Counted from the first letter of the stretch, positions 1,280-46,152 are shown. The stretch: 64,000 nt of DNA from Actinomycetota bacterium (GCA_039188975.1 JBCCYT010000004.1:258-64257), one strand, 5' to 3'. The notes: a model not told the origin generated them from the sequence alone. Numbers and translations are program-made.

Positions 1280-2313
1280 CGCCGGTGCACCTCACCGTCG
1301 CCGACGTCGGCGATCTCGACGATCCGACGCCGGCCGTCTGGGGTCCGGGCAACATGCACGATCACGTCGATCGCCCGAGCCATCTGGCTACGGACCGCAT
1401 CGAGCGGAAACCCCTCGCCTCCCACCACGGCCAAACTCTCGAGCCGTCGGAGCGCATCGAGCGGACCGTTGGCGTGCACGGTCGACAAGCAACCGCGATG
1501 ACCCGTATTGAGGGCCTGCATCAGGTCGAAGGCCTCGTCCCCTCGCACCTCGCCGAGCACCAACCGATCGGGACGCATCCGCAGCGCATTCCGCACGAGT
1601 TCGCGCATCGTCACCCGACCGACGAGTTCGGCCGACTCGGGGCGGGTTTCGAGCCGGACCACGTGCGGGTGGGGAAGCCGGAGTTCGGCTGCGTCTTCGG
1701 CAGTGACGACCCGCTCGACGGAATCGACCCGCGCGGCGATCGCATTGAGCAAGGTCGTCTTTCCCGCGCCGGTGCCACCGCTGACGATGATGTTGCGATG
1801 ATGGGCAACGTCCGCTTCGAGCAGGCGGGCTGCCTCGCACCCGAACGCGGCGAGCTCGACGGCGCGGAGAACGAATCGACGAATCGTCACGTACGGCCCA
1901 TCGAGCGCGATGGGCGGCACGACGATGTGCACCCGGCTGCCGTCGGCCAGCCGTCCATCGACACACGGCGATCGTTGGTCGACCCGGCGGCCGATGGGCA
2001 CGACCAGCCGTTCGACGAGCAAATCGATCTCGGCGCGGTCGAGGGTGAGATCGGTGACGTGGATGACACCGTCTCGTTCCACCCAGACAGGCCCGGCGCC
2101 GTTGACCATCACTTCGCTCACCGTGGGGTCGGTCAGCAGTGGGTCGATCGCGCCGAGTCCGAGACGACGGGCTCGAACGAGCCGCAGCACATCATCGCGA
2201 TCGTCGCGAGGGAGCAGTGGGGCGAACCCGGCCAACACCTCCATCGGTGAGTCATCGGGATACTCGAGCAGGTGATGCTGGACCTGCTCGACCAGGGATC
2301 GCAGGCCGGTCAT
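1267..2313 (-). CDS. CpaF/TadA-type secretion ATPase (actinobacterial 'helicase/secretion neighbourhood' ATPase type)
   Basis: Walker A motif VSGGTGAGKTTLLNAIA and VirB11/CpaF-like blocks (RLVLGEVRGDEAFDLMQALNTGHRG). The start is trimmed to ATG 2313, which forms an ATGA overlap with the upstream stop at 2310-2312. Confidence 0.85.
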   Translation of the reverse strand: MTGLRSLVEQVQHHLLEYPDDSPMEVLAGFAPLLPRDDRDDVLRLVRARRLGLGAIDPLLTDPTVSEVMVNGAGPVWVERDGVIHVTDLTLDRAEIDLLVERLVVPIGRRVDQRSPCVDGRLADGSRVHIVVPPIALDGPYVTIRRFVLRAVELAAFGCEAARLLEADVAHHRNIIVSGGTGAGKTTLLNAIAARVDSVERVVTAEDAAELRLPHPHVVRLETRPESAELVGRVTMRELVRNALRMRPDRLVLGEVRGDEAFDLMQALNTGHRGCLSTVHANGPLDALRRLESLAVVGGEGFPLDAVRSQMARAIDVIVHVARTPDGRRRIVEIADVGDGEVHRRWSA

Positions 2314-2999
2314 GACGCCAACGGGTCGAGGGTCCGCAGCGAACGCGGCAACCGCGAGCTCAGCAGACCAGCATCGACCGACCGGGCGACGGCCGGATCG
2401 AGAACGAGGCGGCGCCACACCGGCACCCCCACCGCGGTGGCGACATCGTCAGCCCGTAGAGCCCGCCCCGGCTCCTCGATGACCACCAACCGAGCACGCG
2501 ACGGCAAGGTACCGGTGCGGCGAACGGCCAAGTAGCAAGCCCGCACCACCACGATTTCCTCGGCGCAGCCGCCCGCCCAGTGCACATCCGCAGCCACCCC
2601 GGCATCGACGATCACGGTGCGCGATGAGGCAGCGCATACGCGTGCGAGCACATCGAGGCGCGTGTCGGCTGGCAAACCGCCGCGAGCGAGCAACCGAAGG
2701 TGCGGCGCGACGTCGAGTTCGAGCGCCGCGAGGCCATCGAGCGGGACGTCGATGCCGCCGAGCCAATCGGTGACCCCCACATCCGGCGACGGGACTCCGA
2801 GGAGCTCGGGTTGATCGCCGGCCAGGTCGATCAACAACGTTTCGGCTCCCGAGCGGGAGCACTGCATGGCCATGGCGGCAGCCACGACCGAGGTTCCGAC
2901 GCCGCCCTTGGGCGATCGACAGATGATGAACACGACAGACTCCCGGAGACAGGGGCTCGACGGGGAAGTCGTGGTGGGTCCGGCCCTGAGGGCCGTCAC
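2310..2999 (-). CDS. CpaE/MinD-like P-loop protein (deviant Walker A)
   Basis: N-terminal motif VVFIICRSPKGGVGTSVVAAAMA, and translationally coupled to the CpaF-type ATPase gene. Confidence 0.6.
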   Translation of the reverse strand: MTALRAGPTTTSPSSPCLRESVVFIICRSPKGGVGTSVVAAAMAMQCSRSGAETLLIDLAGDQPELLGVPSPDVGVTDWLGGIDVPLDGLAALELDVAPHLRLLARGGLPADTRLDVLARVCAASSRTVIVDAGVAADVHWAGGCAEEIVVVRACYLAVRRTGTLPSRARLVVIEEPGRALRADDVATAVGVPVWRRLVLDPAVARSVDAGLLSSRLPRSLRTLDPLAS

Positions 3000-3032
3000 C
3001 TGACCCTAAACATCGACGCGTACGATGCCAAC

Positions 3033-3836
3033 GTGACCGAGGCCGCATTCTTCGATCTCGACAAGACCGTCATCGCCAAAGCCGCGATGCTCGCCTTTGG
3101 TCCCCGCCTTCACCAGGAGGGCATGCTCAACCGCTGGCTGGTCGCCCGCGCCCTGTGGGGCCAGATGGTCTTTCGGTACCTCGGTGCCGACGAGAGCCGG
3201 ATGGAAAAGATGCGGGAGACGGCCTTGAAGGTCGCATCCGGGTGGGAGAAGGAACGGATCTCCAACCTCGTCGACGAGGCGCTGACCGAGGTGATCGACC
3301 CACTCGTGTACGCCGAAGCACTCGAACTCATCGAATCCCATCAAGACGCCGGTCGCCGGGTCTATCTCGTGTCCGCATCACCGGAAGAGATCGTGATGCC
3401 GCTCGCCCGGCATCTCGGGGTCGATGCCGCAATCGCCACCCGGGCTCGGATCGATGCTGCTGGCCGGTACACCGGAGAAGTCGAGTTCTACTCTGCCGGC
3501 GAGCACAAGGTCACCGCCATCGAGGCCGAGCAGGAACGCTACGGCCTCGACCTCGACGGCTCGTACGCGTACTCCGACTCCGTCACCGATCTTCCGATGC
3601 TCGAACGGGTTGGGCATCCGGTCGCGGTCAACCCAGACAAAGCGCTGCTGAAGGAAGCCATCGACCGAGGGTGGGAGATCCGGGTCTTCGAAAACCCTCA
3701 GCCGCTGCGGGAAGGACGCACGGTTCGCCCGCCGAAACCGTCGACCGTTGCGTCGATCGCAGGTGGAGCCGCAATGGGTGCTGCCTGGTGGTGGCGGGCC
3801 AAGCGCCCGGTGCCGAAACGGCGGTGGATCCGTTGA
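3033..3836 (+). CDS. HAD-IB family hydrolase (SerB-like) with a C-terminal hydrophobic tail
   Basis: HAD motif I FFDLDKTVI, plus later VYLVSASPEEIV and YSDSVTDLPML. The in-frame GTG at 3033 is chosen as start; the upstream part of ORF 2700.. overlaps the divergent gene. Confidence 0.75.
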   Translation: MTEAAFFDLDKTVIAKAAMLAFGPRLHQEGMLNRWLVARALWGQMVFRYLGADESRMEKMRETALKVASGWEKERISNLVDEALTEVIDPLVYAEALELIESHQDAGRRVYLVSASPEEIVMPLARHLGVDAAIATRARIDAAGRYTGEVEFYSAGEHKVTAIEAEQERYGLDLDGSYAYSDSVTDLPMLERVGHPVAVNPDKALLKEAIDRGWEIRVFENPQPLREGRTVRPPKPSTVASIAGGAAMGAAWWWRAKRPVPKRRWIR

Positions 3837-5224
3837 GCGACGACCACGGCCATGGCGACCCCAGCCACGACCACAGCGACAGCCACGGTCACGGGCACAG
3901 TCACGGCCACGGCCACGGCCACGGCCTGGAAGGAGGCTGGTCCCAATGGGCGGCCGTGCCGATGCTGCGAATCGTCGCCGGGTTGGTCGCCGTCACCGCG
4001 TTCCTCACCCTGATCGCAGTCGTTGCCCTCTGGCCGACGGGCGAAGGTCGACGGCAGGCGATCGCCAACGCCGATGACCTCGGACTCGTCAGCGACCGGG
4101 TCAATGCCACGGTGCAAGAACAACGCGACGGCCCGTGCAGCTACTCGACCGACGAGAACCCGCAAACCTGTCGTGAAGTCACCCTCATCGTCGAGTCGGG
4201 GCCGGAGGCAGGAGCGCTGGTGATCCTGCCCGAGATCAATCTCCGGTTCGACAGTTCGATCCCGAGCATGTCGCCGGGGGACGCCGTCATTCTCGGCTAC
4301 GAGCCAACGACGAATACGTATTTCTTTGCCGACCTCGACCGTCGGGTTCCGCTGCTGTGGCTCGCAGTGCTCTTCGCCGTGTTCATCATCGGCTTCGGCC
4401 GGTCTCGAGGCGTACTGGCACTGTCATCGATGGCATTCACGATCGTTGCCCTCGTCGGCTTCATCGCGCCGTCGGTGCTCGACGGCAACAACGCGCTGCT
4501 CGTCGCGGTCGTCGGCGCGTCAGCCATCGCCTTCATCAGCTTGTACGTGACCCACGGATTTTCGCCGACGACAACCGTCGCGCTCGCCGGCACCCTCGGT
4601 GCGCTCGGACTCACCCTTGCCCTGTCGTGGATCTTCTTCGAGCTGACCCGTATCACCGGCCTCGGCACCGAAGAAGCGCTGATCCTGCCATTCATCGCCG
4701 CCGACATCGATCTCGCTGCTCTCCTGCTCGGCGGCGCCGTCATCGGGGCGCTCGGCGCACTCGATGACATCACGATCACCCAGGTCGCCACCGTCGCCGA
4801 GATTCACGACCGGCGCCCTGACCTCAGCCGCCGGGAGCTGTTCGCATCGGGTATCCGCATCGGCCAGGAACACATTGCGTCGACCGTCAACACACTGCTG
4901 TTGGCGTACGTCGGTGCGAGCATGCCGCTGCTCTTGCTCTTCTCGACGTCGGATCAATCGCTCGACACCGTCGCCAGTTCGGAACTGATCGCCGTGGAGA
5001 TCGTGCGCACCCTGTGCGGGTCGATGGGCCTGGTGGCTGCCGTCCCGATCACCACCGCGATGGCTGCGCTCGTCGTCACGGGGCGAGGGGCAAACGAAGA
5101 ACCCGTCGAGCGGCACGCCGAGACACCACCAACCGTGCAACCGCCCGTCGACCCCGACCCGAACCCCGAACCATCGTCGGCGCGTTGGGAGGACTTCTCA
5201 CCAGAGGAATCCGACGGGCTCTAG
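3833..5224 (+). CDS. YibE/F family membrane protein with a His-rich N-terminus
   Basis: Multi-TM body with GALGALDDITITQVATVAEI, which is typical of YibE/F. The N-terminus reads DDHGHGDPSHDHSDSHGHGHSHGHGHGHG. The start is uncertain: TTG 3833 overlaps the HAD stop, and the next in-frame ATG (PMLRIV) lies near 3960. Confidence 0.65.
   Translation: MSDDHGHGDPSHDHSDSHGHGHSHGHGHGHGLEGGWSQWAAVPMLRIVAGLVAVTAFLTLIAVVALWPTGEGRRQAIANADDLGLVSDRVNATVQEQRDGPCSYSTDENPQTCREVTLIVESGPEAGALVILPEINLRFDSSIPSMSPGDAVILGYEPTTNTYFFADLDRRVPLLWLAVLFAVFIIGFGRSRGVLALSSMAFTIVALVGFIAPSVLDGNNALLVAVVGASAIAFISLYVTHGFSPTTTVALAGTLGALGLTLALSWIFFELTRITGLGTEEALILPFIAADIDLAALLLGGAVIGALGALDDITITQVATVAEIHDRRPDLSRRELFASGIRIGQEHIASTVNTLLLAYVGASMPLLLLFSTSDQSLDTVASSELIAVEIVRTLCGSMGLVAAVPITTAMAALVVTGRGANEEPVERHAETPPTVQPPVDPDPNPEPSSARWEDFSPEESDGL
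3902..3925 (+). repeat. (CACGGC)x4 hexanucleotide microsatellite encoding HGHGHGHG
   Basis: Read directly: cacggc cacggc cacggc cacggc, preceded by imperfect His/Gly/Ser codon repeats from about 3842. Confidence 0.9.
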
Positions 5225-8987: not shown

Positions 8988-11045
8988 GTGCCGATCAGCG
9001 GATCACCTGCCGCCGGTAGGGTCACCCTGGTGAACGAAGAACGGCCGCTTCGGCACGAGCCAGGGCTCGACGGCGTCCGCGCGATCGGGCTCGCCATGGC
9101 GCTGCTCACCCATTCGGGCTACGCCTGGGCGCCGGGCGGATTCGTCGGCGTCTCCGTCTTCTTTGCCATGTCTGGCTTCTTGATCACGACCCTGTTGCTT
9201 CGACCGGCATCCGATCGGGCTGCGATGGCCGACTTCTGGATTCGTCGCTTTCGACGCCTCCTCCCCCCGGCACTTCTGATGATCGCCGGCACCCTCATCT
9301 TGGGCTTCCTGGTCGATCTCGGCCCGACCAGGGCCGACCTGCAGTCCGATGCGCTTGCGTCGTTGCTCTACTTCGCCAATTGGCACTTCTTGATCACGGG
9401 CAACACCTACGACGCGATCTTCACCGCGCCGAGCCCGTTTCATCACATGTGGAGTCTCAGCATCGAAGAGCAGTTCTACCTGTTCTTTCCGTTCGTGATC
9501 TTCGGCCTGCGGCGAGCCGGGTTGACGCTACGACAGATCGGGTGGGTCATGGTCGGGTTGTGGGCGCTCGCAGTCGCCGCCAATCTCTGGACGGGTGTGG
9601 TGTACGGCGCCGATACCACCTACCTTGCAACCCACTCTCGACTGTCGGAGATCATGGCCGGCGCCGCGCTGGCATGTCTCGTACCGGGGCTGCTCGACCG
9701 CGATCACCGAGTCGACATCTCGAATCGGGTTCGGTCATGGGTGCTGGCCGCTGCACTGATCGGCTCGATCGTCAATGTCGGCTTCTTCTTCACGATCCGC
9801 GATTCCGACCCAGAGATCGCACAGGGCGTGCTCCCGATCGTGTCGGTGGCGAGCGTTGCGATCGTCGCGGGCATCTTGCTGGTCCCCCGATTCTCCGCCG
9901 CCATGTCGGTTGGGCCGCTGCCCCTGATCGGGCGGATGAGCTATGCCGTCTACCTCATTCATTGGCCGATCTTCTTGTGGCTCACCCCCGAACGCACCGG
10001 GCTCGGTGACCTTCCCCTGCTGCTCCTTCGTCTCATCGTCACGTTCGCGCTCGCCGGGCTGAGCTACCGATTCATCGAAACGCCCAGCCGTCGGTACGCA
10101 ACGCGGCCCCCGCTGCCGGTGATTGTCGCTCCCGTGATGGCTGCCGTCGCCGCCGCCGTGCTGATCATCGTGCCCACCACCGATGACCTGTCGGTCGTCG
10201 AGGCGGCAGAAGCCGAGCTCGAAACCCTGTTCTCCGATCCAGTTGCGCCGACGTCGACCACGGCAGCACCCGTCGAGGCGACGGCTGCGACCGACGCGGA
10301 AACCGACGCCGCGCCGTCGCTCTCCACATCGTCCCCGACCACCGTGCCGAACGGACCGATCGTGGCGGCCATGTTTGGCGACTCGACCGCGTTCTTCACC
10401 CAGTTCGGGGTCGGTCGGTGGGCCCTCGAAAACACGGAGGAACTCGTGTTGGTCGAAGGCGGCGCCACCGTTGGATGTCCGCTCGGGCGGGGTGGGGAAC
10501 GGGACTTCGATCGAGGGATCACCGCTCCCGGCCCGGGGTGCGATTGGACCGACGCGTGGCCATCGATCATCGAACGCCAGGGCATCGAGATCGCAATCCT
10601 GCAGGTTGGTCCGTGGGAGGTCGCCGAGTACCGGGCGACGCCGTCAGCCCAATGGACCCGGATCGGTGAGCCCGAGCACGAGGCCTATCTCGAAGCCGAA
10701 CTTCGTGCGAGCGTGAACGCGTTGCTCGCCGGCGGCGCCGAACAGGTCATCGTGTTGACGAGCCCGTACATCCACGTTGGCCGGCTCGACCCGAGCCGAA
10801 CCGCCGGCGCAATCGCCGCGTCGGAACCCGAACGAATGGATGCATTCAACGCGCTGCTCCAACGCCTCTTCAGCACCGAAGAACGGGTCGCGGTCGTCGA
10901 TCTCGCCGGCCATGTTGCGTCGATCTCCAACGGTCTCGTCGATCCGGATCTGATGCCCGACGGCCTGCACTTCGACGAGGCCGCATCCAACCTGGTGGGC
11001 GAATGGCTGTCGCCCACCATCGTCGAGACGGCCAACGCACGGTGA
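8988..11045 (+). CDS. acyltransferase-3 (OafA-like) membrane protein with a C-terminal SGNH-like domain
   Basis: Contains LDGVRAIGLAMALLTH...FFAMSGFLIT, about 10 TM segments, a Thr/Ala-rich linker, and a C-terminal domain with GDSTAF and PDGLHF. An alternative start is GTG 9030. Confidence 0.8.
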   Translation: MPISGSPAAGRVTLVNEERPLRHEPGLDGVRAIGLAMALLTHSGYAWAPGGFVGVSVFFAMSGFLITTLLLRPASDRAAMADFWIRRFRRLLPPALLMIAGTLILGFLVDLGPTRADLQSDALASLLYFANWHFLITGNTYDAIFTAPSPFHHMWSLSIEEQFYLFFPFVIFGLRRAGLTLRQIGWVMVGLWALAVAANLWTGVVYGADTTYLATHSRLSEIMAGAALACLVPGLLDRDHRVDISNRVRSWVLAAALIGSIVNVGFFFTIRDSDPEIAQGVLPIVSVASVAIVAGILLVPRFSAAMSVGPLPLIGRMSYAVYLIHWPIFLWLTPERTGLGDLPLLLLRLIVTFALAGLSYRFIETPSRRYATRPPLPVIVAPVMAAVAAAVLIIVPTTDDLSVVEAAEAELETLFSDPVAPTSTTAAPVEATAATDAETDAAPSLSTSSPTTVPNGPIVAAMFGDSTAFFTQFGVGRWALENTEELVLVEGGATVGCPLGRGGERDFDRGITAPGPGCDWTDAWPSIIERQGIEIAILQVGPWEVAEYRATPSAQWTRIGEPEHEAYLEAELRASVNALLAGGAEQVIVLTSPYIHVGRLDPSRTAGAIAASEPERMDAFNALLQRLFSTEERVAVVDLAGHVASISNGLVDPDLMPDGLHFDEAASNLVGEWLSPTIVETANAR

Positions 11046-40383: not shown

Positions 40384-40728
40384 TCAGACGGTGGCGATCG
40401 CCTCGATCTCGACGCTGGCTCCCAGCGGAAGCTCCTTCACCGCAACTGCGGATCGGGCCGGGCGATGATCGCCGAACTCCTCCATGTAGATCTCGTTCAT
40501 CACCGCGTAGTCGCCCATGTCGGCAAGGAACACGGTGGTCTTCACGACATCGGCAAGCGAGGCGTTGGCGCTCGACAGCACCGAGCGCAAGTTGATGAAC
40601 ACCTGGCGCAGTTCTGGTTCGAGACCACCCTCGACGATGGCACCGTCGGAGATCCCGACCTGACCGGCCGTGAAGAGAAGATCGCCACCGCGGACGATGG
40701 GCGTGTAGGGACCGACGGGCTTACTCAT
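40384..40728 (-). CDS. ridA: RidA/YjgF family reactive-intermediate deaminase
   Basis: Contains GPYTPIVRGGDLLFTAGQVG...VKTTVFLADMGDYAVMNEIY...PARSAVAVKELPLGASVEIEAIA. Confidence 0.85.
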   Translation of the reverse strand: MSKPVGPYTPIVRGGDLLFTAGQVGISDGAIVEGGLEPELRQVFINLRSVLSSANASLADVVKTTVFLADMGDYAVMNEIYMEEFGDHRPARSAVAVKELPLGASVEIEAIATV

Positions 40729-40761
40729 GGGCCGAGCGTAGGCGCTCGGCCACCCCTAACC

Positions 40762-40823
40762 CTCCAACACCCGCATGAACGCGGAGGGAACATCCGTCGG
40801 CTCCCCCACCGTCGCCAGCTGAG
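40762..40823. repeat. direct repeat copy A (62 bp); a detached duplicate of the vWA gene 3' end
   Basis: 60 of 62 nt are identical to 43001..43062. On the minus strand it still reads QLATVGEPTDVPSAFMRVLEG*. Confidence 0.85.
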
Positions 40824-40844
40824 TAGTTCGTCGGTACCCGCCGC

Positions 40845-40964
40845 TCACCCACCCGCCAGCACCAGGAAACCGACGGCAACGCCGACGCCGAGACAGCAGA
40901 CGGTCACGAGCGCCACGAGCGCGCCCGAGAAACCGCAGTCCCGTTGATGTTGCTCGGAGTCCAC
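40845..40964 (-). CDS. possible 39-aa membrane micro-protein downstream of the metzincin gene
   Basis: GTG 40964 lies 25 nt after the upstream stop: VDSEQHQRDCGFSGALVALVTVCCLGVGVAVGFLVLAGG*. The evidence is the hydrophobic core and position only. Confidence 0.3.
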   Translation of the reverse strand: MDSEQHQRDCGFSGALVALVTVCCLGVGVAVGFLVLAGG

Positions 40965-40989
40965 GACCCAGCCTTTCAATCCGTCCGGT

Positions 40990-42927
40990 CTAGAAGAGGG
41001 AGCAGAACCGAGATGTGCGGAGCAAAATTCGCTGATCTCGGCCAAGCGTTGGGTCGGTTGGCGTGCAGGACTCTCGCATCAGGTTGTCTTCCCCGCCGAC
41101 ATGCCAGAGACCGCAGGCATGACCGACCTCATGTGCAAGCGTGCATATCTCGGGTTCGGCTTCGACAAAGACATAGTCGGTGAGCGGGCCCAGTGATACC
41201 CCACTCTTGTCGGGATCGTTGTCCACGACAAAGACGGTGAGCGTCGGACTCACTCCGACGAGACGCCGTGCCGATCCCCGAAGACCGAGGTCGGCGTTGG
41301 AGTTCGACCAGAGGTCGTGAAGCAACTGACCCGAGCCGTCGAGCGGAACCTTGGTGTCGTGAGCGCGCGTGTCGGCATACACCTCATCGATCGATACCAC
41401 TCGCAAACCAACGTTGGCTTCGCGGTCGAGTGTGTCCTGCGCGAACCGCAGCCATGCATCGACGGCAAATCGTTCTGCTACCGGAACGTACTCCGCCAAT
41501 CCAGCGTCGTAGCTCGTCCGGATGGCCACCCGCACGCGGATCTTCTTCCGAAGTGCCCCCCACGTGACGAGCTCGACGATGCCGTGAAAGAGGCGCCTTG
41601 CGACTTCAACCCACGTGCGGGCGATGTAGCCGAGAGCGGTGCCCACGAGCGGAATCGCGAACACAAGCTGAACTCCAAACGCGAGCACGTCCAAGACGAA
41701 GACCACGGCGGCGACAACGGCCTTCACGACCTGCCATATCGCCGAGACCCCTCCCTTGACCGCTCCCCATGCCTTCGCCAGCCAGGAACTGTCCTCGGCG
41801 GGACGCTGGTGATGGAGTTCATGAAGGCGACCGGTGTCATCGAAGTACGCGATGTGCTGGGTCCGCCCCCAGGTCCAAGCCGCAAGCTGCACAAGACTGC
41901 TGCTCGCTCGCGGAGCACCGGCCTCGACGGTCAGATCCTTGTGCCGCCACCCGGCGTTGCGTTCATAGACGAGTTCGTGGATGTGGGCGTCGTCTCCGAG
42001 GTACACGATGTGTTGTTGATCCTCGAACGTATATGCCGCAAGTGGGCCCCCGGCTGGAGGCGGCGAACCCTGGGCGGCGGTCGACAGATCCTGGTGCTGC
42101 CAGCCATTGCCATCACGTCGGAACACCAGCTCGTGGATGTGATCGTCGTCTCCTCGATAGACGACGTGCTGAGCGTTTCCCCACGAGTAACCAACGAGGT
42201 GTTCGCGTCCCGAGGCGACGGGCGGAGCCTGCGGGAGACCGGAGAGGAGGTTCTCGTTGTACCTCCAGGGTCCTCCGTTCTCGAAGTAGAACTCGGCGAC
42301 GGCCGGCCAGCGACGGCCAACGACATGTTGCCCGCCGTCCCATTCGTATCCCGTGAGCGAATCACCGATGGTGTTTTCCGCGTTGGTGGCTCTCGCATGA
42401 AGATCGGTGAACTTCCACGCGCCCGATCCTCGCCACAACTCTGCGACGGCGTTGTAGCCCCGGGGGTCAGCCTTGCGTTGCGTGTACACGATGTGCTGGT
42501 CACCGCGATATCGGTACTCCGCGAGGGGCGAGCTTGCTGTGGCTTGGGGTCCGCCCGCGGCGTCGTTCAACCAGTTGAGATCCCACGGCTGGTCGGGATG
42601 TTTGACCAGTTCCGCCACACCCAGTGGTCCCGATGGAAGACGCCGAGCAAGGGCAAGGACGTGCTGGGCTCCGCCATGCATGTAGCCGCGTAACGCTGCA
42701 GCGGAGGTCCATTCGAGCGGACCAGAATTCGCCGCATCGGTGAGGTTGTTCTGCAACCAACCCCGCCCGTCTCGGCGAAAGTAGAACTCGTGGACATGGT
42801 CATCAGCACCGCGAAACACCAGGTGCTGCGAGTCTCCCTTCGCGTATCCGGCCATTGGGCCAGTCGCCACAGGCGCGGTGCCTTTCACCGAGGCGGACAG
42901 CGCGGTGTATCGCCATGAGCTCGACAT
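40990..42927 (-). CDS. multidomain protein: 7 propeller-like repeats, a 2-TM hairpin, and a C-terminal metzincin-type zinc metallopeptidase
   Basis: Seven repeats of about 45-50 aa fit the pattern G[YW]x5QH[VI]V[YF]...D.H[IV]HE[LF]...W...L. The hydrophobic hairpin is AIWQVVKAVVAAVVFVLDVLAFGVQLVFAIPLVGTALGYIA. The C-terminus has HEVGHACGLWH (HExxHxxGxxH) followed by NLM. The start is ATG 42927, with GGGAGG 5 nt upstream. Confidence 0.7.
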   Translation of the reverse strand: MSSSWRYTALSASVKGTAPVATGPMAGYAKGDSQHLVFRGADDHVHEFYFRRDGRGWLQNNLTDAANSGPLEWTSAAALRGYMHGGAQHVLALARRLPSGPLGVAELVKHPDQPWDLNWLNDAAGGPQATASSPLAEYRYRGDQHIVYTQRKADPRGYNAVAELWRGSGAWKFTDLHARATNAENTIGDSLTGYEWDGGQHVVGRRWPAVAEFYFENGGPWRYNENLLSGLPQAPPVASGREHLVGYSWGNAQHVVYRGDDDHIHELVFRRDGNGWQHQDLSTAAQGSPPPAGGPLAAYTFEDQQHIVYLGDDAHIHELVYERNAGWRHKDLTVEAGAPRASSSLVQLAAWTWGRTQHIAYFDDTGRLHELHHQRPAEDSSWLAKAWGAVKGGVSAIWQVVKAVVAAVVFVLDVLAFGVQLVFAIPLVGTALGYIARTWVEVARRLFHGIVELVTWGALRKKIRVRVAIRTSYDAGLAEYVPVAERFAVDAWLRFAQDTLDREANVGLRVVSIDEVYADTRAHDTKVPLDGSGQLLHDLWSNSNADLGLRGSARRLVGVSPTLTVFVVDNDPDKSGVSLGPLTDYVFVEAEPEICTLAHEVGHACGLWHVGGEDNLMRESCTPTDPTLGRDQRILLRTSRFCSLF

Positions 42928-42994
42928 CGACACCTCCCACGAAGATCATCTGACCGCGGCGCAACACGGGAGTCAAGCGACAGCTCCCCGGCGC

Positions 42995-44017
42995 TCAGCG
43001 TTCCAACACCCGCATGAACGCCGAGGGAACATCCGTCGGCTCCCCCACCGTCGCCAGCTGAGCGCCGACCGAGCGGGCGAAGTCTTCAGCGTCGTTGGCG
43101 TCGTCGGTCGGTGCGATCACACACAACTCATCGAGCCCTCTCGCCACCGGGACGGCGTCACCGCCAGTCGTCGCTCGGCAATCCGACATCAGGATCGTCA
43201 CCCGCCGCTTCGCTCGGCTGCGGTCGAGCTGGCGCGCAGCCGCAACGAGCGCGCCGGCCAGGTCGGTCGTGCCCTGCCCTCGCAGCCGGAGCAGATCATC
43301 GACAACCGCCAACGACGATCGTGAATCGTCCTGGCTCTTGATCGCGATCACCCGATCGGCGAACGCAAGCACCGACCAATCAACCGGGGCGCGATGCGCA
43401 CAGGCCGCCGCGGCAACCGCCGCCGTCGCCAGCCGTTTGCCACTCATCGAACCGCTACGGTCGATCACCAGCGCAAGCGCCGTCGCCGGTTGGGTCCAGT
43501 GCCGAACCCGCAGCTCGGCGGCATCCACCAGCTCGCCGGTTGCCCGGGCATGCACCAACCCATCGAGGCTGGTGTCGAGATCGAGGTCGCCATCGGCTCG
43601 ATCAGCCGGCGACGAAGCCATCGACCCGACACCACGAGCCTGGACCGGTCCGGCCTTCGCCACGTCGAGCACGAGGCGCCCCGCGAGGCGAGCAGCCATC
43701 GCTGCCAGCTGGCGATCGGTCGCACCCCGCATCTGCGCGAGGAGAGACATCGCATGATCGGGGTCTTCATCGACGAGATCGGCCAGCGCATCGTCGTCGA
43801 TCTCGCCGACGTCGGGACTGATCTCCTCGAACTTCGGATCGCGTGCGAGTTGCGGACGAGGCGTCGTACGGCGATTGTCGTCCTCGATGGCCTGACGGGC
43901 GTCGTCGCCCTCCAAGGTCAGGGGGACGCCGGAGTCGCCCCGTCCGGGGCTGTCGCTTTTCCCGAGGAATCGCCGGCGTCCGGCGAAGGGTTTTCGCGAG
44001 CGAGTACGGCGTCCCAC
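42995..44017 (-). CDS. von Willebrand factor A (vWA) domain protein
   Basis: MIDAS motif LVIDRSGSMSG. It lies immediately downstream of the MoxR-like ATPase. The true start is probably nearer 43915 (TTG), because the long model overlaps the MoxR gene by 100 nt. Confidence 0.75.
   Translation of the reverse strand: MGRRTRSRKPFAGRRRFLGKSDSPGRGDSGVPLTLEGDDARQAIEDDNRRTTPRPQLARDPKFEEISPDVGEIDDDALADLVDEDPDHAMSLLAQMRGATDRQLAAMAARLAGRLVLDVAKAGPVQARGVGSMASSPADRADGDLDLDTSLDGLVHARATGELVDAAELRVRHWTQPATALALVIDRSGSMSGKRLATAAVAAAACAHRAPVDWSVLAFADRVIAIKSQDDSRSSLAVVDDLLRLRGQGTTDLAGALVAAARQLDRSRAKRRVTILMSDCRATTGGDAVPVARGLDELCVIAPTDDANDAEDFARSVGAQLATVGEPTDVPSAFMRVLER
43001..43062. repeat. direct repeat copy B (62 bp); the functional 3' end of the vWA gene
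   Basis: Encodes QLATVGEPTDVPSAFMRVLER*. See copy A at 40762..40823. Confidence 0.85.
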
Positions 44018-44859
44018 AGGTCGGTGATGACCGACTCCGGCGTTGCGCTGCCGCCCTCGTGGAGCCGTATCCGGCCCGAAAGCGCCGTGAGCGCAGCGTC
44101 GAGACCGACGGCGGCGTCGGTTGGGTCGAGGCCTCGCATCGACGCCAGCGCATGGCCAACTTCAACAAGGTCGATGGCGCCGCGAACCGATGAACCAACC
44201 CGAACCTCCGGATGCGTGCGGGTCCCGCGGGTGACGGCGACCGCCCGACGCCGCAGGATCCGGTCGTCGTCGGAGGTGTTGCGGACCACGATGTCGGACT
44301 CGTCGTCGAGCGACTGATACCCCATTGCGATGCGACACATCCGGTCATAGACCGCTCCTGACACCCGAGCGGTGCCGATGTTGTCGAACGGATTCATCGC
44401 AGCAACGAGACGGAACCCGTCGGCGGCCGGGATCGTGCCAATCCGGGGCAAGGTGAGCTCACCTTCGGACATCACCGTGATGAGCAGATTGACGGTCTCT
44501 TCGGGCACCCGATTGAGTTCCTCGACGTACAGCAGCGAGCCGTTGCGCAGCGCTTCGACCAACGGACCGTCGACGAAGACGTCCGGTGTGTAGCCGTCCT
44601 CGAGCACCCGCGACGGGTCGAACTGACCGGCGAGGCGGGCCGGAGTGAGTTCGGCGTTGCCTTCGACGAACACGAACCCGGTCCCGGCGGCAGCGGCAAC
44701 CTCCCGCAAGATCGTCGATTTCCCGGTTCCCGGCGGCCCCTCGAGCAGAACATGGCGGTCGGCCGCCAGTGCAGCGACGAGCACCTCGAGCTCGCGGCGC
44801 CGACCCACGACGCGCTGACACAGCGCGTCGATGACACCCAGATCGGTCAAGCTCGTCAT
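43918..44859 (-). CDS. MoxR-like AAA+ ATPase
   Basis: Walker A LLEGPPGTGKST and Walker B LLYVEELNR, with the MoxR/AAA_5-like size (313 aa). Confidence 0.8.
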   Translation of the reverse strand: MTSLTDLGVIDALCQRVVGRRRELEVLVAALAADRHVLLEGPPGTGKSTILREVAAAAGTGFVFVEGNAELTPARLAGQFDPSRVLEDGYTPDVFVDGPLVEALRNGSLLYVEELNRVPEETVNLLITVMSEGELTLPRIGTIPAADGFRLVAAMNPFDNIGTARVSGAVYDRMCRIAMGYQSLDDESDIVVRNTSDDDRILRRRAVAVTRGTRTHPEVRVGSSVRGAIDLVEVGHALASMRGLDPTDAAVGLDAALTALSGRIRLHEGGSATPESVITDLWDAVLARENPSPDAGDSSGKATAPDGATPASP

Positions 44860-44892: not shown

Positions 44893-46005
44893 TCAGTCGA
44901 AGGTGATGACGCCACGGACGTTCTTGTTCGCCATCATGTCGGCGTAGCCCTCGTTGACCTCGTCGAGCGTGTACGTGTTGGTGATCATCTCATCGAGCTT
45001 GAGCTGACCAGCCTGATACATCGACAGCAGGTGCGGGATCTCTTTGCGAGGTGCGGTCGAACCGAACAGGCAGCCTTTGAGCTCCTGATTCATCATCGAG
45101 AACATAAACAGGTTGAGCTGCACGTCCATCTGCGCGGCCGGAGCGACCGCAGTCGCCACCACCGTGCCGCCCTTGCGGGTGAGGAACTGAGCGGGGGCGA
45201 TCAGGTCACCGGTCAGCACCGACGGCGTGAGGATCACCGAGTCGGCGTTGACGCCTTCGGTCAGCTCGCCGACCAGACCCATCGCTTCCTCCATCGACGG
45301 TGCCGTGTGGGTTGCACCGAACTGCATGGCGCTCTCCCGCTTGAACTCGCTCGGGTCGATGGCGACGACATTTTTGGCGCCAGCCACCTTGGCCCCCTGA
45401 ATCGCAGCGGTGCCGAGCCCGCCACAACCAACCACGACGACGGTGTCGCCCGCCGTCACCTCAGCCCGATTCACCGCCGAGCCATAGCCGGTCGTCACAC
45501 CGCACGACACCAGAGCCGCCGGGCCGGGCGGGACATCCTTTTGAATCTTGATGGCGGAGTCGACGCTCAACACCATGTGTTCGGAGAACGTGCCGAGCTT
45601 CAGCAGTGGCGAGAGCGGATTACCCGCTGAGTCGTGATGACGGTAGGTGCCATCGATCATTCCCGGCTCCATCAGCTTGGCACCCAGGTCGCAGAGGTTC
45701 TGCTGACCACGGGCACACCAGGTGCACTTTCCGCAGCTGGGGATGAAGGAGCAGGAGATCTGATCGCCGATCTCGAACTCGGTGACACCTTCACCCAACC
45801 CGATGACCGTGCCGGACCCCTCATGCCCGCCGATGATCGGCAGTGGGGCTGGCATCGTGCCGTCGTGTGCGTGCTCATCGGAATGACACATGCCGGCGGC
45901 ACCGGTCTTGACCAGGATCTCGCCCGCCTTGGGATCGTCGAGCTCGATCTCCTCGACGTTCCACTCGGCACCGACTTCACGCAGGACGGCAGCACGGGTC
46001 TTCAT
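44893..46005 (-). CDS. zinc-type alcohol dehydrogenase, NDMA-dependent (nicotinoprotein) subfamily-like
   Basis: Contains GMCHSDEH, FIPSCGKCTWCARGQQNLCDLGA, GCGGLG and LLSMYQAGQLKLDEMITNTYTLDEVNEGYADMMANKNVRGVITF. The subfamily assignment is from memory. The start is ATG 46005, with a GAGGAG Shine-Dalgarno. Confidence 0.75.
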   Translation of the reverse strand: MKTRAAVLREVGAEWNVEEIELDDPKAGEILVKTGAAGMCHSDEHAHDGTMPAPLPIIGGHEGSGTVIGLGEGVTEFEIGDQISCSFIPSCGKCTWCARGQQNLCDLGAKLMEPGMIDGTYRHHDSAGNPLSPLLKLGTFSEHMVLSVDSAIKIQKDVPPGPAALVSCGVTTGYGSAVNRAEVTAGDTVVVVGCGGLGTAAIQGAKVAGAKNVVAIDPSEFKRESAMQFGATHTAPSMEEAMGLVGELTEGVNADSVILTPSVLTGDLIAPAQFLTRKGGTVVATAVAPAAQMDVQLNLFMFSMMNQELKGCLFGSTAPRKEIPHLLSMYQAGQLKLDEMITNTYTLDEVNEGYADMMANKNVRGVITFD

Positions 46006-46152
46006 GACGATCTCCTCAGGGCTGGGTGTGCGCGGAACGTACCAGTGCGAGCCTTTTTCTGTCACGTACGAGAGTCGTTCTCAGTACCGACGGCGGGGTG
46101 ATTTCATGCGCCCGAGAGGTGGCCACGGACGCAATCAGCCGGGGGGCGAGCC

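Follow-up and report, generated by a model that had tools for sequence, protein, structure and literature searches.

Some integrative elements restore the 3′ end of the gene that they enter, as does prophage e14 in icd. In cis-mobilizable elements (CIMEs), attL and attR are retained, while the integration and transfer genes have been lost (PMC5704250). When a circular DNA bears a truncated homologous gene end, single crossover yields duplications of that end of 109-950 bp, and this outcome is far more frequent than homology-facilitated illegitimate recombination (HFIR) (PMC3240628). In type VI secretion system (T6SS) and Rhs loci, the accepted explanations of orphaned 3′ ends are HFIR and C-terminal displacement (PMC5361080). 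Here, we analyse a 64,000-nucleotide stretch from an Actinomycetota bacterium (GCA_039188975.1, JBCCYT010000004.1:258-64257; the window), in which the 3′ end of a vWA gene is present twice, in direct orientation, on both sides of a segment that encodes a propeller-transmembrane-metzincin protein (the cargo). In our view, there is an even chance that host recombination inserted this segment once and recently, leaving the repeat as a scar; the DNA would have been gained from a close relative and anchored by homology on one side only, through Campbell-type single crossover or HFIR.

An earlier note on this DNA had described a direct repeat of 62 bp with 60 identities. The repeat is real, and the formal alignment narrows it to 61 nt with sharp ends: positions 40763-40823 and 43002-43062 are 60/61 identical at a spacing of 2239 bp (repeat search and register alignment), and in the register alignment the identity drops abruptly right outside the 61 nt on each side. 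Allowing up to three mismatches, the 61-nt sequence is found twice in the 64-kb window and not at all in 100 dinucleotide shuffles. The single internal mismatch is a synonymous Ser codon change (TCC/TCG), and the extra position of the 62-bp version (40762/43001, C/T) gives GAG or GAA on the coding strand, both Glu. Both mismatches of that version are thus synonymous, and the claim that one of them alters the last residue does not hold; the change from R to G comes from the next codon (CGC versus GGT), which lies outside the repeat. Only two of the seven bases that follow the repeat match (ACGCTGA versus GGGTTAG). The features that concern the repeat and its immediate surroundings are the following:

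42995-43915, minus strand: vWA gene, 306 aa, with Pfam matches to VWA_2/VWA and VWA_CoxE among the precomputed matches.
43002-43062, minus strand: repeat copy B, 61 nt at the end of the live vWA gene, whose final 7 nt, ACGCTGA (…E-R-stop), come directly after it.
40824-43001, minus strand: segment between the repeats, 2,178 bp, which together with one repeat makes 2,239 bp; missing from 16/16 related loci.
40763-40823, minus strand: repeat copy A, an orphaned relic of the vWA 3′ end, 60/61 identical to copy B.
40756-40762, minus strand: relic tail GGGTTAG (…E-G-stop), with an in-frame stop at the canonical codon position.
40729-40755, minus strand: spacer between the relic and ridA, with a perfect 9-bp hairpin; can be aligned to the sequence between vWA and ridA at the empty site of relative L013.
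40384-40728, minus strand: ridA (Ribonuc_L-PSP), found directly after vWA in four relatives.

As the earlier note had proposed, copy B is the real end of the vWA gene: the minus-strand reading frame runs through it to …QLATVGEPTDVPSAFMRVLER (…FMRVLER) and the stop at 42995-42997. Copy A is an orphan beside ridA, 27 nt upstream of it, which reads …QLATVGEPTDVPSAFMRVLEG (…FMRVLEG) on the minus strand up to a TAG stop at 40756-40758. The sequence 5′ of copy A in the same frame is unrelated and Arg/Gly-rich, and the list of open reading frames (ORFs) contains none of 40 aa or more in this frame upstream of the repeat.

The window matches a part of contig JBCCVN010000002.1 in a metagenome-assembled genome (MAG) labelled Actinomycetota (GCA_039195265.1). 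The locus was compared with 18 loci carrying vWA homologues (68-94% amino acid identity), all from Acidimicrobiia-type MAGs found in a scan with one genome per species. Sixteen of the 18 sequences extend beyond the vWA stop; in these, a stretch of 3 kb starting at the vWA 3′ end was aligned and searched with the window proteins. Empty sites, for which the earlier note had suggested looking, are present in four relatives, where the vWA stop lies 34 nt (L013, interval at 10919-10955), ~92 nt (L004 and L002) or ~55 nt (L008) from the ridA start. The gene order ADH-MoxR-vWA and ridA-h64-glyoxalase-patatin is kept in the relatives, and the window and L013 share 79-87% DNA identity, evenly on both flanks, the sole break in synteny between them being a 2,239-bp block; the empty-site comparison is at genus-like divergence only (~80-85% DNA identity). 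From the empty sites in these four relatives and the synteny of both flanks we conclude that the 2,239-bp block was inserted here, at the vWA 3′ end, in agreement with the earlier note, and that the insertion is real. Neither the 626-aa cargo gene nor a second copy of the vWA end was found in any of the 16 related loci.

What fills the slot between vWA and ridA varies within this clade. In L006 and L009 it comprises ~560 nt with a lipoprotein-like ORF of ~168 aa (L006 4297-4858), and in L016 it extends over 2.8 kb (1416-4206) and holds a 319-aa gene of no assigned function and a pair of genes for an ABC ATPase and an ABC-2 permease, followed by ridA. In L007, L003, L005, L019, L010, and L011 the ABC pair is found behind vWA, with no ridA within the sequence examined, and in the most distant loci, L012, L014, and L017, neither ridA nor the ABC pair is recognisable downstream. 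No direct repeats were found around these other slot fillings in the relatives. Since the slot can be empty or hold a lipoprotein-like ORF, an ABC pair, or a gene of no assigned function plus an ABC pair, the cargo could be regarded as an old resident that the relatives have lost, with the orphan copy as a small local duplication. We consider this highly improbable, given that the relic abuts a spacer of the empty-site type, so that a vWA end once lay beside ridA, and that the cargo is absent from 16/16 relatives and has atypical codon usage; moreover, there is no mechanism by which a local copy of 61 nt would come to lie at precisely this place and carry an in-frame stop.

The two tails that follow the repeat copies, and the spacer before ridA, bear most directly on the course of the event. 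The tail past copy B is A-CGC-TGA-GCG, within a 12-mer, GAACGCTGAGCG, that is identical in L007, and the resulting …LER is the most frequent vWA C-terminus among the relatives, which also end in …LEH, …LDA, …LDR, and in one case in an extension. The earlier suggestion that the incoming DNA restores the reading frame is therefore borne out, as the sequence past copy B is a canonical …LER-TGA end. Such an end is not expected from a random insert, which argues that the incoming DNA would already have carried a vWA 3′ end. The 60-nt stretch from the vWA stop to the cargo start was also considered as a homologue of the vWA-ABC intergenic region of L007, and rejected (local scores ≤22, like those of unrelated coding sequence); only the 12-mer GAACGCTGAGCG is claimed. 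As a separate observation, a metagenomic vWA that is 91% identical (L031 2200-2301, protein P0014) is likewise altered right at its stop codon: the canonical stop is missing, and the ORF continues for seven more codons (…VLERWATADSP, then stop), the contig ending 61 nt later.

The tail past copy A is G-GGT-TAG, and is followed by GGGT, the perfect 9-bp hairpin, and the ATG of ridA. Copy A, its in-frame stop, and the spacer with the hairpin align with the empty site of L013 (GGAG…GGGG.GGCCGAGCGC..TACGCTC…ATG), where the spacer reads GGGGAC-GGCCGAGCGC-AC-TACGCTCCGG-ATC-ATG; the sole difference in the relic stretch of the window is the replacement of ~9 nt (CGCTGACCC) by GGTTA. The hairpin (40730-40738 and 40743-40751; 9 bp, GC-rich, GGCCGAGCG / CGCTCGGCC, with a loop of 4) ends one base short of the ridA start codon; it lacks a T-run, and its conservation in L013 is partial. 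It might mark the mRNA end, act as an attenuator, or control the translation of ridA. This alignment indicates that a vWA end adjoined ridA before the insertion, and the relic, the spacer, and ridA would thus preserve the former arrangement. Both repeat copies carry the same lineage-specific codons (VGEPTDVPSAFMR), whereas the closest relative in the sample has other bases at 26% of the 61 repeat positions, which indicates that the donor and recipient vWA ends came from the same lineage and that the event is recent.

Any mechanism must account for the canonical tail on the upstream copy and for the abutment of the downstream copy on an empty-site spacer. In the reading that we favour, the vWA end would have been located ~30 nt upstream of ridA before the event, as in L013, L004, L002, and L008, and the incoming DNA would have belonged to a very close relative, with ~98% identity over the repeat. 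The incoming molecule would have comprised at least the last 68 nt of the relative's vWA gene, with its canonical …LER-TGA-GCG end, followed by the propeller-transmembrane-metzincin gene and ~170 nt of trailing sequence, and would have recombined with the resident vWA gene through a short homologous tract, on one side only. The route may have been a Campbell-type single crossover, if the donor was a circle, or homology-facilitated illegitimate joining, if it was linear, and by either route the insert would come to be flanked by the tract. The live vWA gene would now end in the incoming copy, and the resident copy (…LEG-TAG) would have been pushed 2,239 bp downstream to become the dead relic before ridA; the repeats would in turn permit a RecA-mediated precise loss of a 2,239-bp circle. 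The duplication of a homologous tract around an insert, which both routes predict, is observed here, the live copy having the canonical tail and the relic being followed by the empty-site spacer. We infer the route of recombination, the identity of the resident copy, and the adjacency of vWA and cargo in the donor.

Several points weigh against this reconstruction. It requires a donor in which a vWA end already lay beside the cargo; none was found, and the first association of the two is moved one step back. For recombination of the RecA type, a tract of 61 bp is short, the …LEG ending is absent among the vWA homologues inspected, and the predicted resident empty site (…GTGTTGGAGGGTTAGGGGTGGCC…) was not seen, there being no strain-level relative in the collections. 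A mirror arrangement is also possible, in which the canonical end is the resident one and the insert brought copy A with GGGTTA at its right end, with GGGG microhomology at both junctions; the resident copy is indistinguishable on this basis. Finally, the data consist of one MAG contig.

This last point raises the question of an assembly artefact, in which a vWA-ridA and a vWA-cargo haplotype, from two strains, would have been chained into one contig at the 61-mer that they have in common. The single metagenome-assembled contig and the resemblance of the two tails to two haplotypes of one gene end speak for such a join. However, a k-mer assembler can output the join of the insert end to copy A (…CGAACTA joined to CTCAGCTGG…) only if the reads contain it, and the one-base difference between the copies means that they were assembled separately. 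The contigs of a sister MAG in the same accession series have k141-style names, and, with a comparable final k here, a 61-bp repeat would presumably not tangle the graph. We therefore regard an artefact as very unlikely.

The sharp boundaries of the insert, together with the lack of a recombinase and of terminal inverted repeats, would also suit break-repair capture, in which a staggered double-strand break or a replication template switch at the vWA end, handled by non-homologous end joining (NHEJ), alternative end joining, or microhomology-mediated break-induced replication, would have taken up foreign DNA and led to the duplication of ~61-80 nt of target by fill-in or re-copying. Ku/LigD NHEJ is known in several Actinobacteria, and the GGGG at both outer junctions would be a possible microhomology if the canonical end is the resident one. 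However, a target-site duplication predicts that the native tail remains on the downstream copy, whereas the canonical tail sits on the upstream one. The captured fragment would moreover have to begin by chance with the in-frame A-CGC-TGA-GCG, and an extra micro-replacement (CGCTGA…CC to GGTTA) would be needed in a relic that is otherwise changed at 1/61 positions. Plain target-site duplication around random foreign DNA was rejected because of this chance in-frame start, and break-repair capture as a whole appears unlikely to us.

The earlier note had favoured site-specific integration of an integrase-less cassette into the vWA 3′ end. Such an element, mobilised in trans or in cis and akin to a CIME remnant, would have used the vWA 3′ end as attB and the 61 bp as att core, and would have supplied a replacement gene end. 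The geometry fits, with direct repeats at both ends of the insert, a gene 3′ end as target, an ORF restored by the insert, and the original end displaced. The att-like repeats are there (61 nt, at both ends of the 2.18-kb segment), as is the empty target in the relatives, and 61 bp is within the range of att identity blocks. The segment also resembles a CIME in having attL/attR-like repeats without integration or transfer genes, a feature that is equally expected of a plain recombination scar.

Against this stands the lack of any trace of the machinery or of recurrence. The insert was said to carry no integrase, and this is correct: it holds only the cargo gene and the micro-ORF, and no integrase, transposase, or recombinase family is represented among the genes called at ~31.9-52.9 kb of the window (~±10 kb). 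The insert ends show no terminal inverted repeats (the alignment score equals the shuffle mean), and the 61-mer has no special fold, folding no better than shuffles (z = -0.03). The exact 61-mer is absent from the genome contig collection, a 24-mer of the core is absent from the viral contigs, and the six matches of a 20-mer of the core in metagenome contigs are all chance matches in unrelated genes; neither a donor nor a strain-level relative was found in the collections searched. PADLOC gave no significant match for vWA or cargo, and the phage and plasmid collections yielded only one weak plasmid match, to the protease part of the cargo.

The suggestion that the repeat might flank homologous cassettes elsewhere thus found no support, as core and cassette are both absent from the genome, metagenome, and viral collections searched. 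In the 16 related loci, tblastn, ORF inspection, and the 3-kb alignment revealed no integrative and conjugative or integrative and mobilizable element (ICE/IME) downstream of vWA, and none of them has a second vWA-end copy or a repeat-flanked filling. The cargo has no close homologue, its distant homologues are not located at vWA genes in the five neighbourhoods examined, and the tail borne by the insert is the native vWA end of the relatives, which points to a chromosomal donor rather than to an independent attP. The idea of a cassette that targets vWA ends site-specifically is hence not supported, in view of the missing recurrence, the location of the cargo homologues, the repeat-free fillings of the same slot in other loci, and the lack of inverted repeats and fold. 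Nothing that we found points to a mobile element, be it self-contained or recurrent, and we consider the site-specific reading rather unlikely.

Other classes of mobile DNA were also considered and rejected. A transposon or insertion sequence does not agree with a duplication of 61 bp, no terminal inverted repeats, and no transposase gene, nor does an integron gene cassette with a repeat that has no attC-like fold and with no integrase gene. A near-identical 11-mer, TGAGCG[G/C]CGGG, follows both the micro-ORF stop and the vWA stop; by our estimate, the probability of such a coincidence among the end comparisons is somewhat below an even chance, and it was not counted as evidence.

On the minus strand, the order of transcription is ADH, MoxR, vWA, the 626-aa cargo gene, the micro-ORF, the orphan repeat copy, and ridA. 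The genes of this array that were not listed above are:

44893-46065, minus strand: ADH gene, the first in transcription order.
43918-44859, minus strand: gene of a MoxR-type AAA+ ATPase (AAA_5, 84 bits; bpMoxR, partial match, 35 bits).
40990-42870, minus strand: cargo gene, 626 aa (NCBI call), with a lectin propeller, a helical hairpin, and a metzincin domain.
40845-41045, minus strand: micro-ORF, 66 aa if it starts at a TTG, ~39 aa if it starts at an internal GTG that lies past the cargo stop; its C-terminus is hydrophobic.

The vWA gene apparently starts at a TTG two bases past the MoxR stop (…TGACCTTGGAG…; window 43915-43920), as it does in L006, which suggests a tight translational coupling of the MoxR-vWA pair; a longer, 340-aa ORF that begins with GTG and overlaps MoxR probably does not represent the real vWA start. 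Upstream of ADH-MoxR-vWA (L001 1473-5408, minus strand, corresponding to ~47.5-51.4 kb of the window), precomputed Pfam matches indicate CP_ATPgrasp, Alpha-E, and transglutaminase-core proteins, with faint matches to proteasome families.

The insert had been described as a two-gene cassette. The propeller-transmembrane-metzincin gene is well supported, its label agreeing with AlphaFold2 models, PDB matches, and metzincin motifs, whereas the micro-ORF is doubtful, with no Pfam match and no counterpart in the NCBI calls. The 626-aa cargo protein has no Pfam match above threshold. In the AlphaFold2 model, residues 1 to ~367 form a β-propeller (pLDDT ~85-93), which in the PDB is matched best by the PLL/PHL fucose lectins of Photorhabdus, with seven blades (TM-score 0.72-0.77 on target). 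The C-terminal 253 residues, modelled with 29 homologues, show two long helices, which probably form a membrane-spanning hairpin in the predicted structure, and a metzincin fold with fragilysin and the adamalysins as best matches. The metzincin domain contains HEVGHACGLWH and an NLM Met-turn, and the His, Glu, Gly, His, and His of HExxHxxGxxH, as well as the Asn and Met of NLM, are invariant in the alignment of the 29 homologues. Homologues of this C-terminal part are stand-alone matrixin-like proteins of ~220-400 aa. By eye, no signal peptide is visible in the cargo protein, and a possible earlier start is found in a GTG/ATG near 42927-42933, behind a GGGAGG motif.

No close homologue of the cargo was found in 5.8 billion proteins or in 1.84 billion representatives, the next best match being ~41% identical over about one third of the length. 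An exhaustive HMMER search of the 1.84 billion representatives retrieved a large propeller family, and among the best 150 matches one other protein, P0230, has the same full architecture, with 25% identity over the full length. In other relatives of the cargo, the propeller is joined to Peptidase_A4 or trypsin domains. None of the neighbouring genes of the cargo homologues P0002, P0010, P0011, P0133, P0135, and P0230 matches a MoxR or vWA family, and the sequence upstream of P0230, readable only as L032, is unlike the vWA gene of the window.

Among 22 neighbouring genes, the cargo gene has the lowest GC content at third codon positions (0.70 versus 0.73-0.86) and the poorest codon fit, and is for this reason consistent with a recent foreign origin. 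The insert GC content (62-64%) is inside the range of its neighbours and is not diagnostic alone. A blastn search of the insert against the relatives gave nothing below E = 0.007, and the tblastx matches listed against the relatives and the rest of the window are short, scattered, low-score segments, which we read as GC-rich noise. The micro-ORF may be truncated trailing sequence of the incoming fragment. It overlaps the cargo 3′ end by 56 nt. The contig of P0230 shows a similar layout, as the cargo homologue there shares its last 49 nt with a gene of 155 aa. Possibly, the micro-ORF is what remains, after truncation, of a conserved downstream partner.

The position of a propeller protein behind a MoxR-vWA pair recalls the β-propeller ternary systems, in which vWA is fused to a C-terminal propeller of about four blades, and the third component, co-inherited with the pair, has a variable N-terminal region, a transmembrane segment, and a C-terminal TPR and propeller (PMC7159879). 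The locus was rejected as such a system: its 306-aa vWA has VWA_2/VWA (VWA_CoxE) matches only and no propeller, and the cargo combines an N-terminal PLL-type propeller with a C-terminal metzincin domain, has no TPR, and is absent from all the relatives in which the pair is retained. We see no support for a functional link of the cargo to MoxR-vWA, although one may exist.

A wider interpretation can be drawn, in which the vWA 3′ end is a recurrent recombination anchor and the vWA-ridA interval a docking slot for cargo swaps in marine Acidimicrobiia (nothing, a lipoprotein-like gene, an ABC pair, or the lectin-propeller/metzincin protein), with the propeller-protease plugged into the MoxR-vWA chaperone pair as sensor or effector in a nascent ternary system; we hold this to be quite improbable. 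Taken together, the locus gives the impression of a well-preserved scar from a one-off recombination event, familiar in kind but unusual in its cargo protein, and not of a demonstrable mobile cassette; it reveals no new class of mobile element. If host recombination was indeed responsible, it would provide a clean natural case of foreign gene gain without detectable mobile-element machinery at the site, where a few dozen bases of a conserved gene end would suffice as anchor and the displaced gene end would record the event. The vWA-ridA interval is flagged as a variable slot of the clade, and the cargo as a further member of a rare architecture that joins a PLL-type lectin propeller, a membrane hairpin, and a metzincin protease. 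Could such a protein carry out glycan-guided proteolysis at the membrane?

Compared with known systems, the locus resembles the MoxR-vWA ternary conflict systems (Kaur et al. 2020, PMC7159879) and the Esr sensing pathways of Actinomycetales (bioRxiv 10.64898/2026.09.08.750141) in having a MoxR-vWA pair followed by a gene for a propeller, a protease, and a membrane segment, with variable parts downstream. In contrast to these systems, the vWA is short and has no fused propeller or effector, the pair is kept without the propeller gene in all the relatives, and the cargo homologues are unlinked to MoxR/vWA. With CIMEs (PMC5704250) and integrative elements that restore a gene 3′ end, it shares the direct repeats at a gene 3′ end, the completion of the ORF by the insert, and the lack of integration genes inside. 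Here, however, the site is not known to have a cognate integrase or a parental ICE/IME and shows no recurrence, and the tail is the native vWA end of the relatives.

A likeness in arrangement is also found in the HFIR or 'C-terminal displacement' described for Rhs and T6SS effector-immunity loci (PMC5361080), where a conserved upstream anchor gene is followed by new cargo and the old 3′ end is orphaned downstream. The present locus differs from those in having a single relic rather than an array, a cargo that is not an effector-immunity pair tied to a delivery system, and no documented repeated use of the anchor, as the other slot fillings are without relics. In the case of Campbell-type integration through a short gene end, as in the lacZ-end duplications of E. 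coli conjugation (PMC3240628), the tract is longer (109-950 bp versus 61 bp), and the donor circle is hypothetical for our locus, which represents a natural event in an uncultured Acidimicrobiia genome. In both, a homologous gene-end tract is directly duplicated around the insert, no site-specific recombinase is required, and the arrangement is reversible by homologous recombination.

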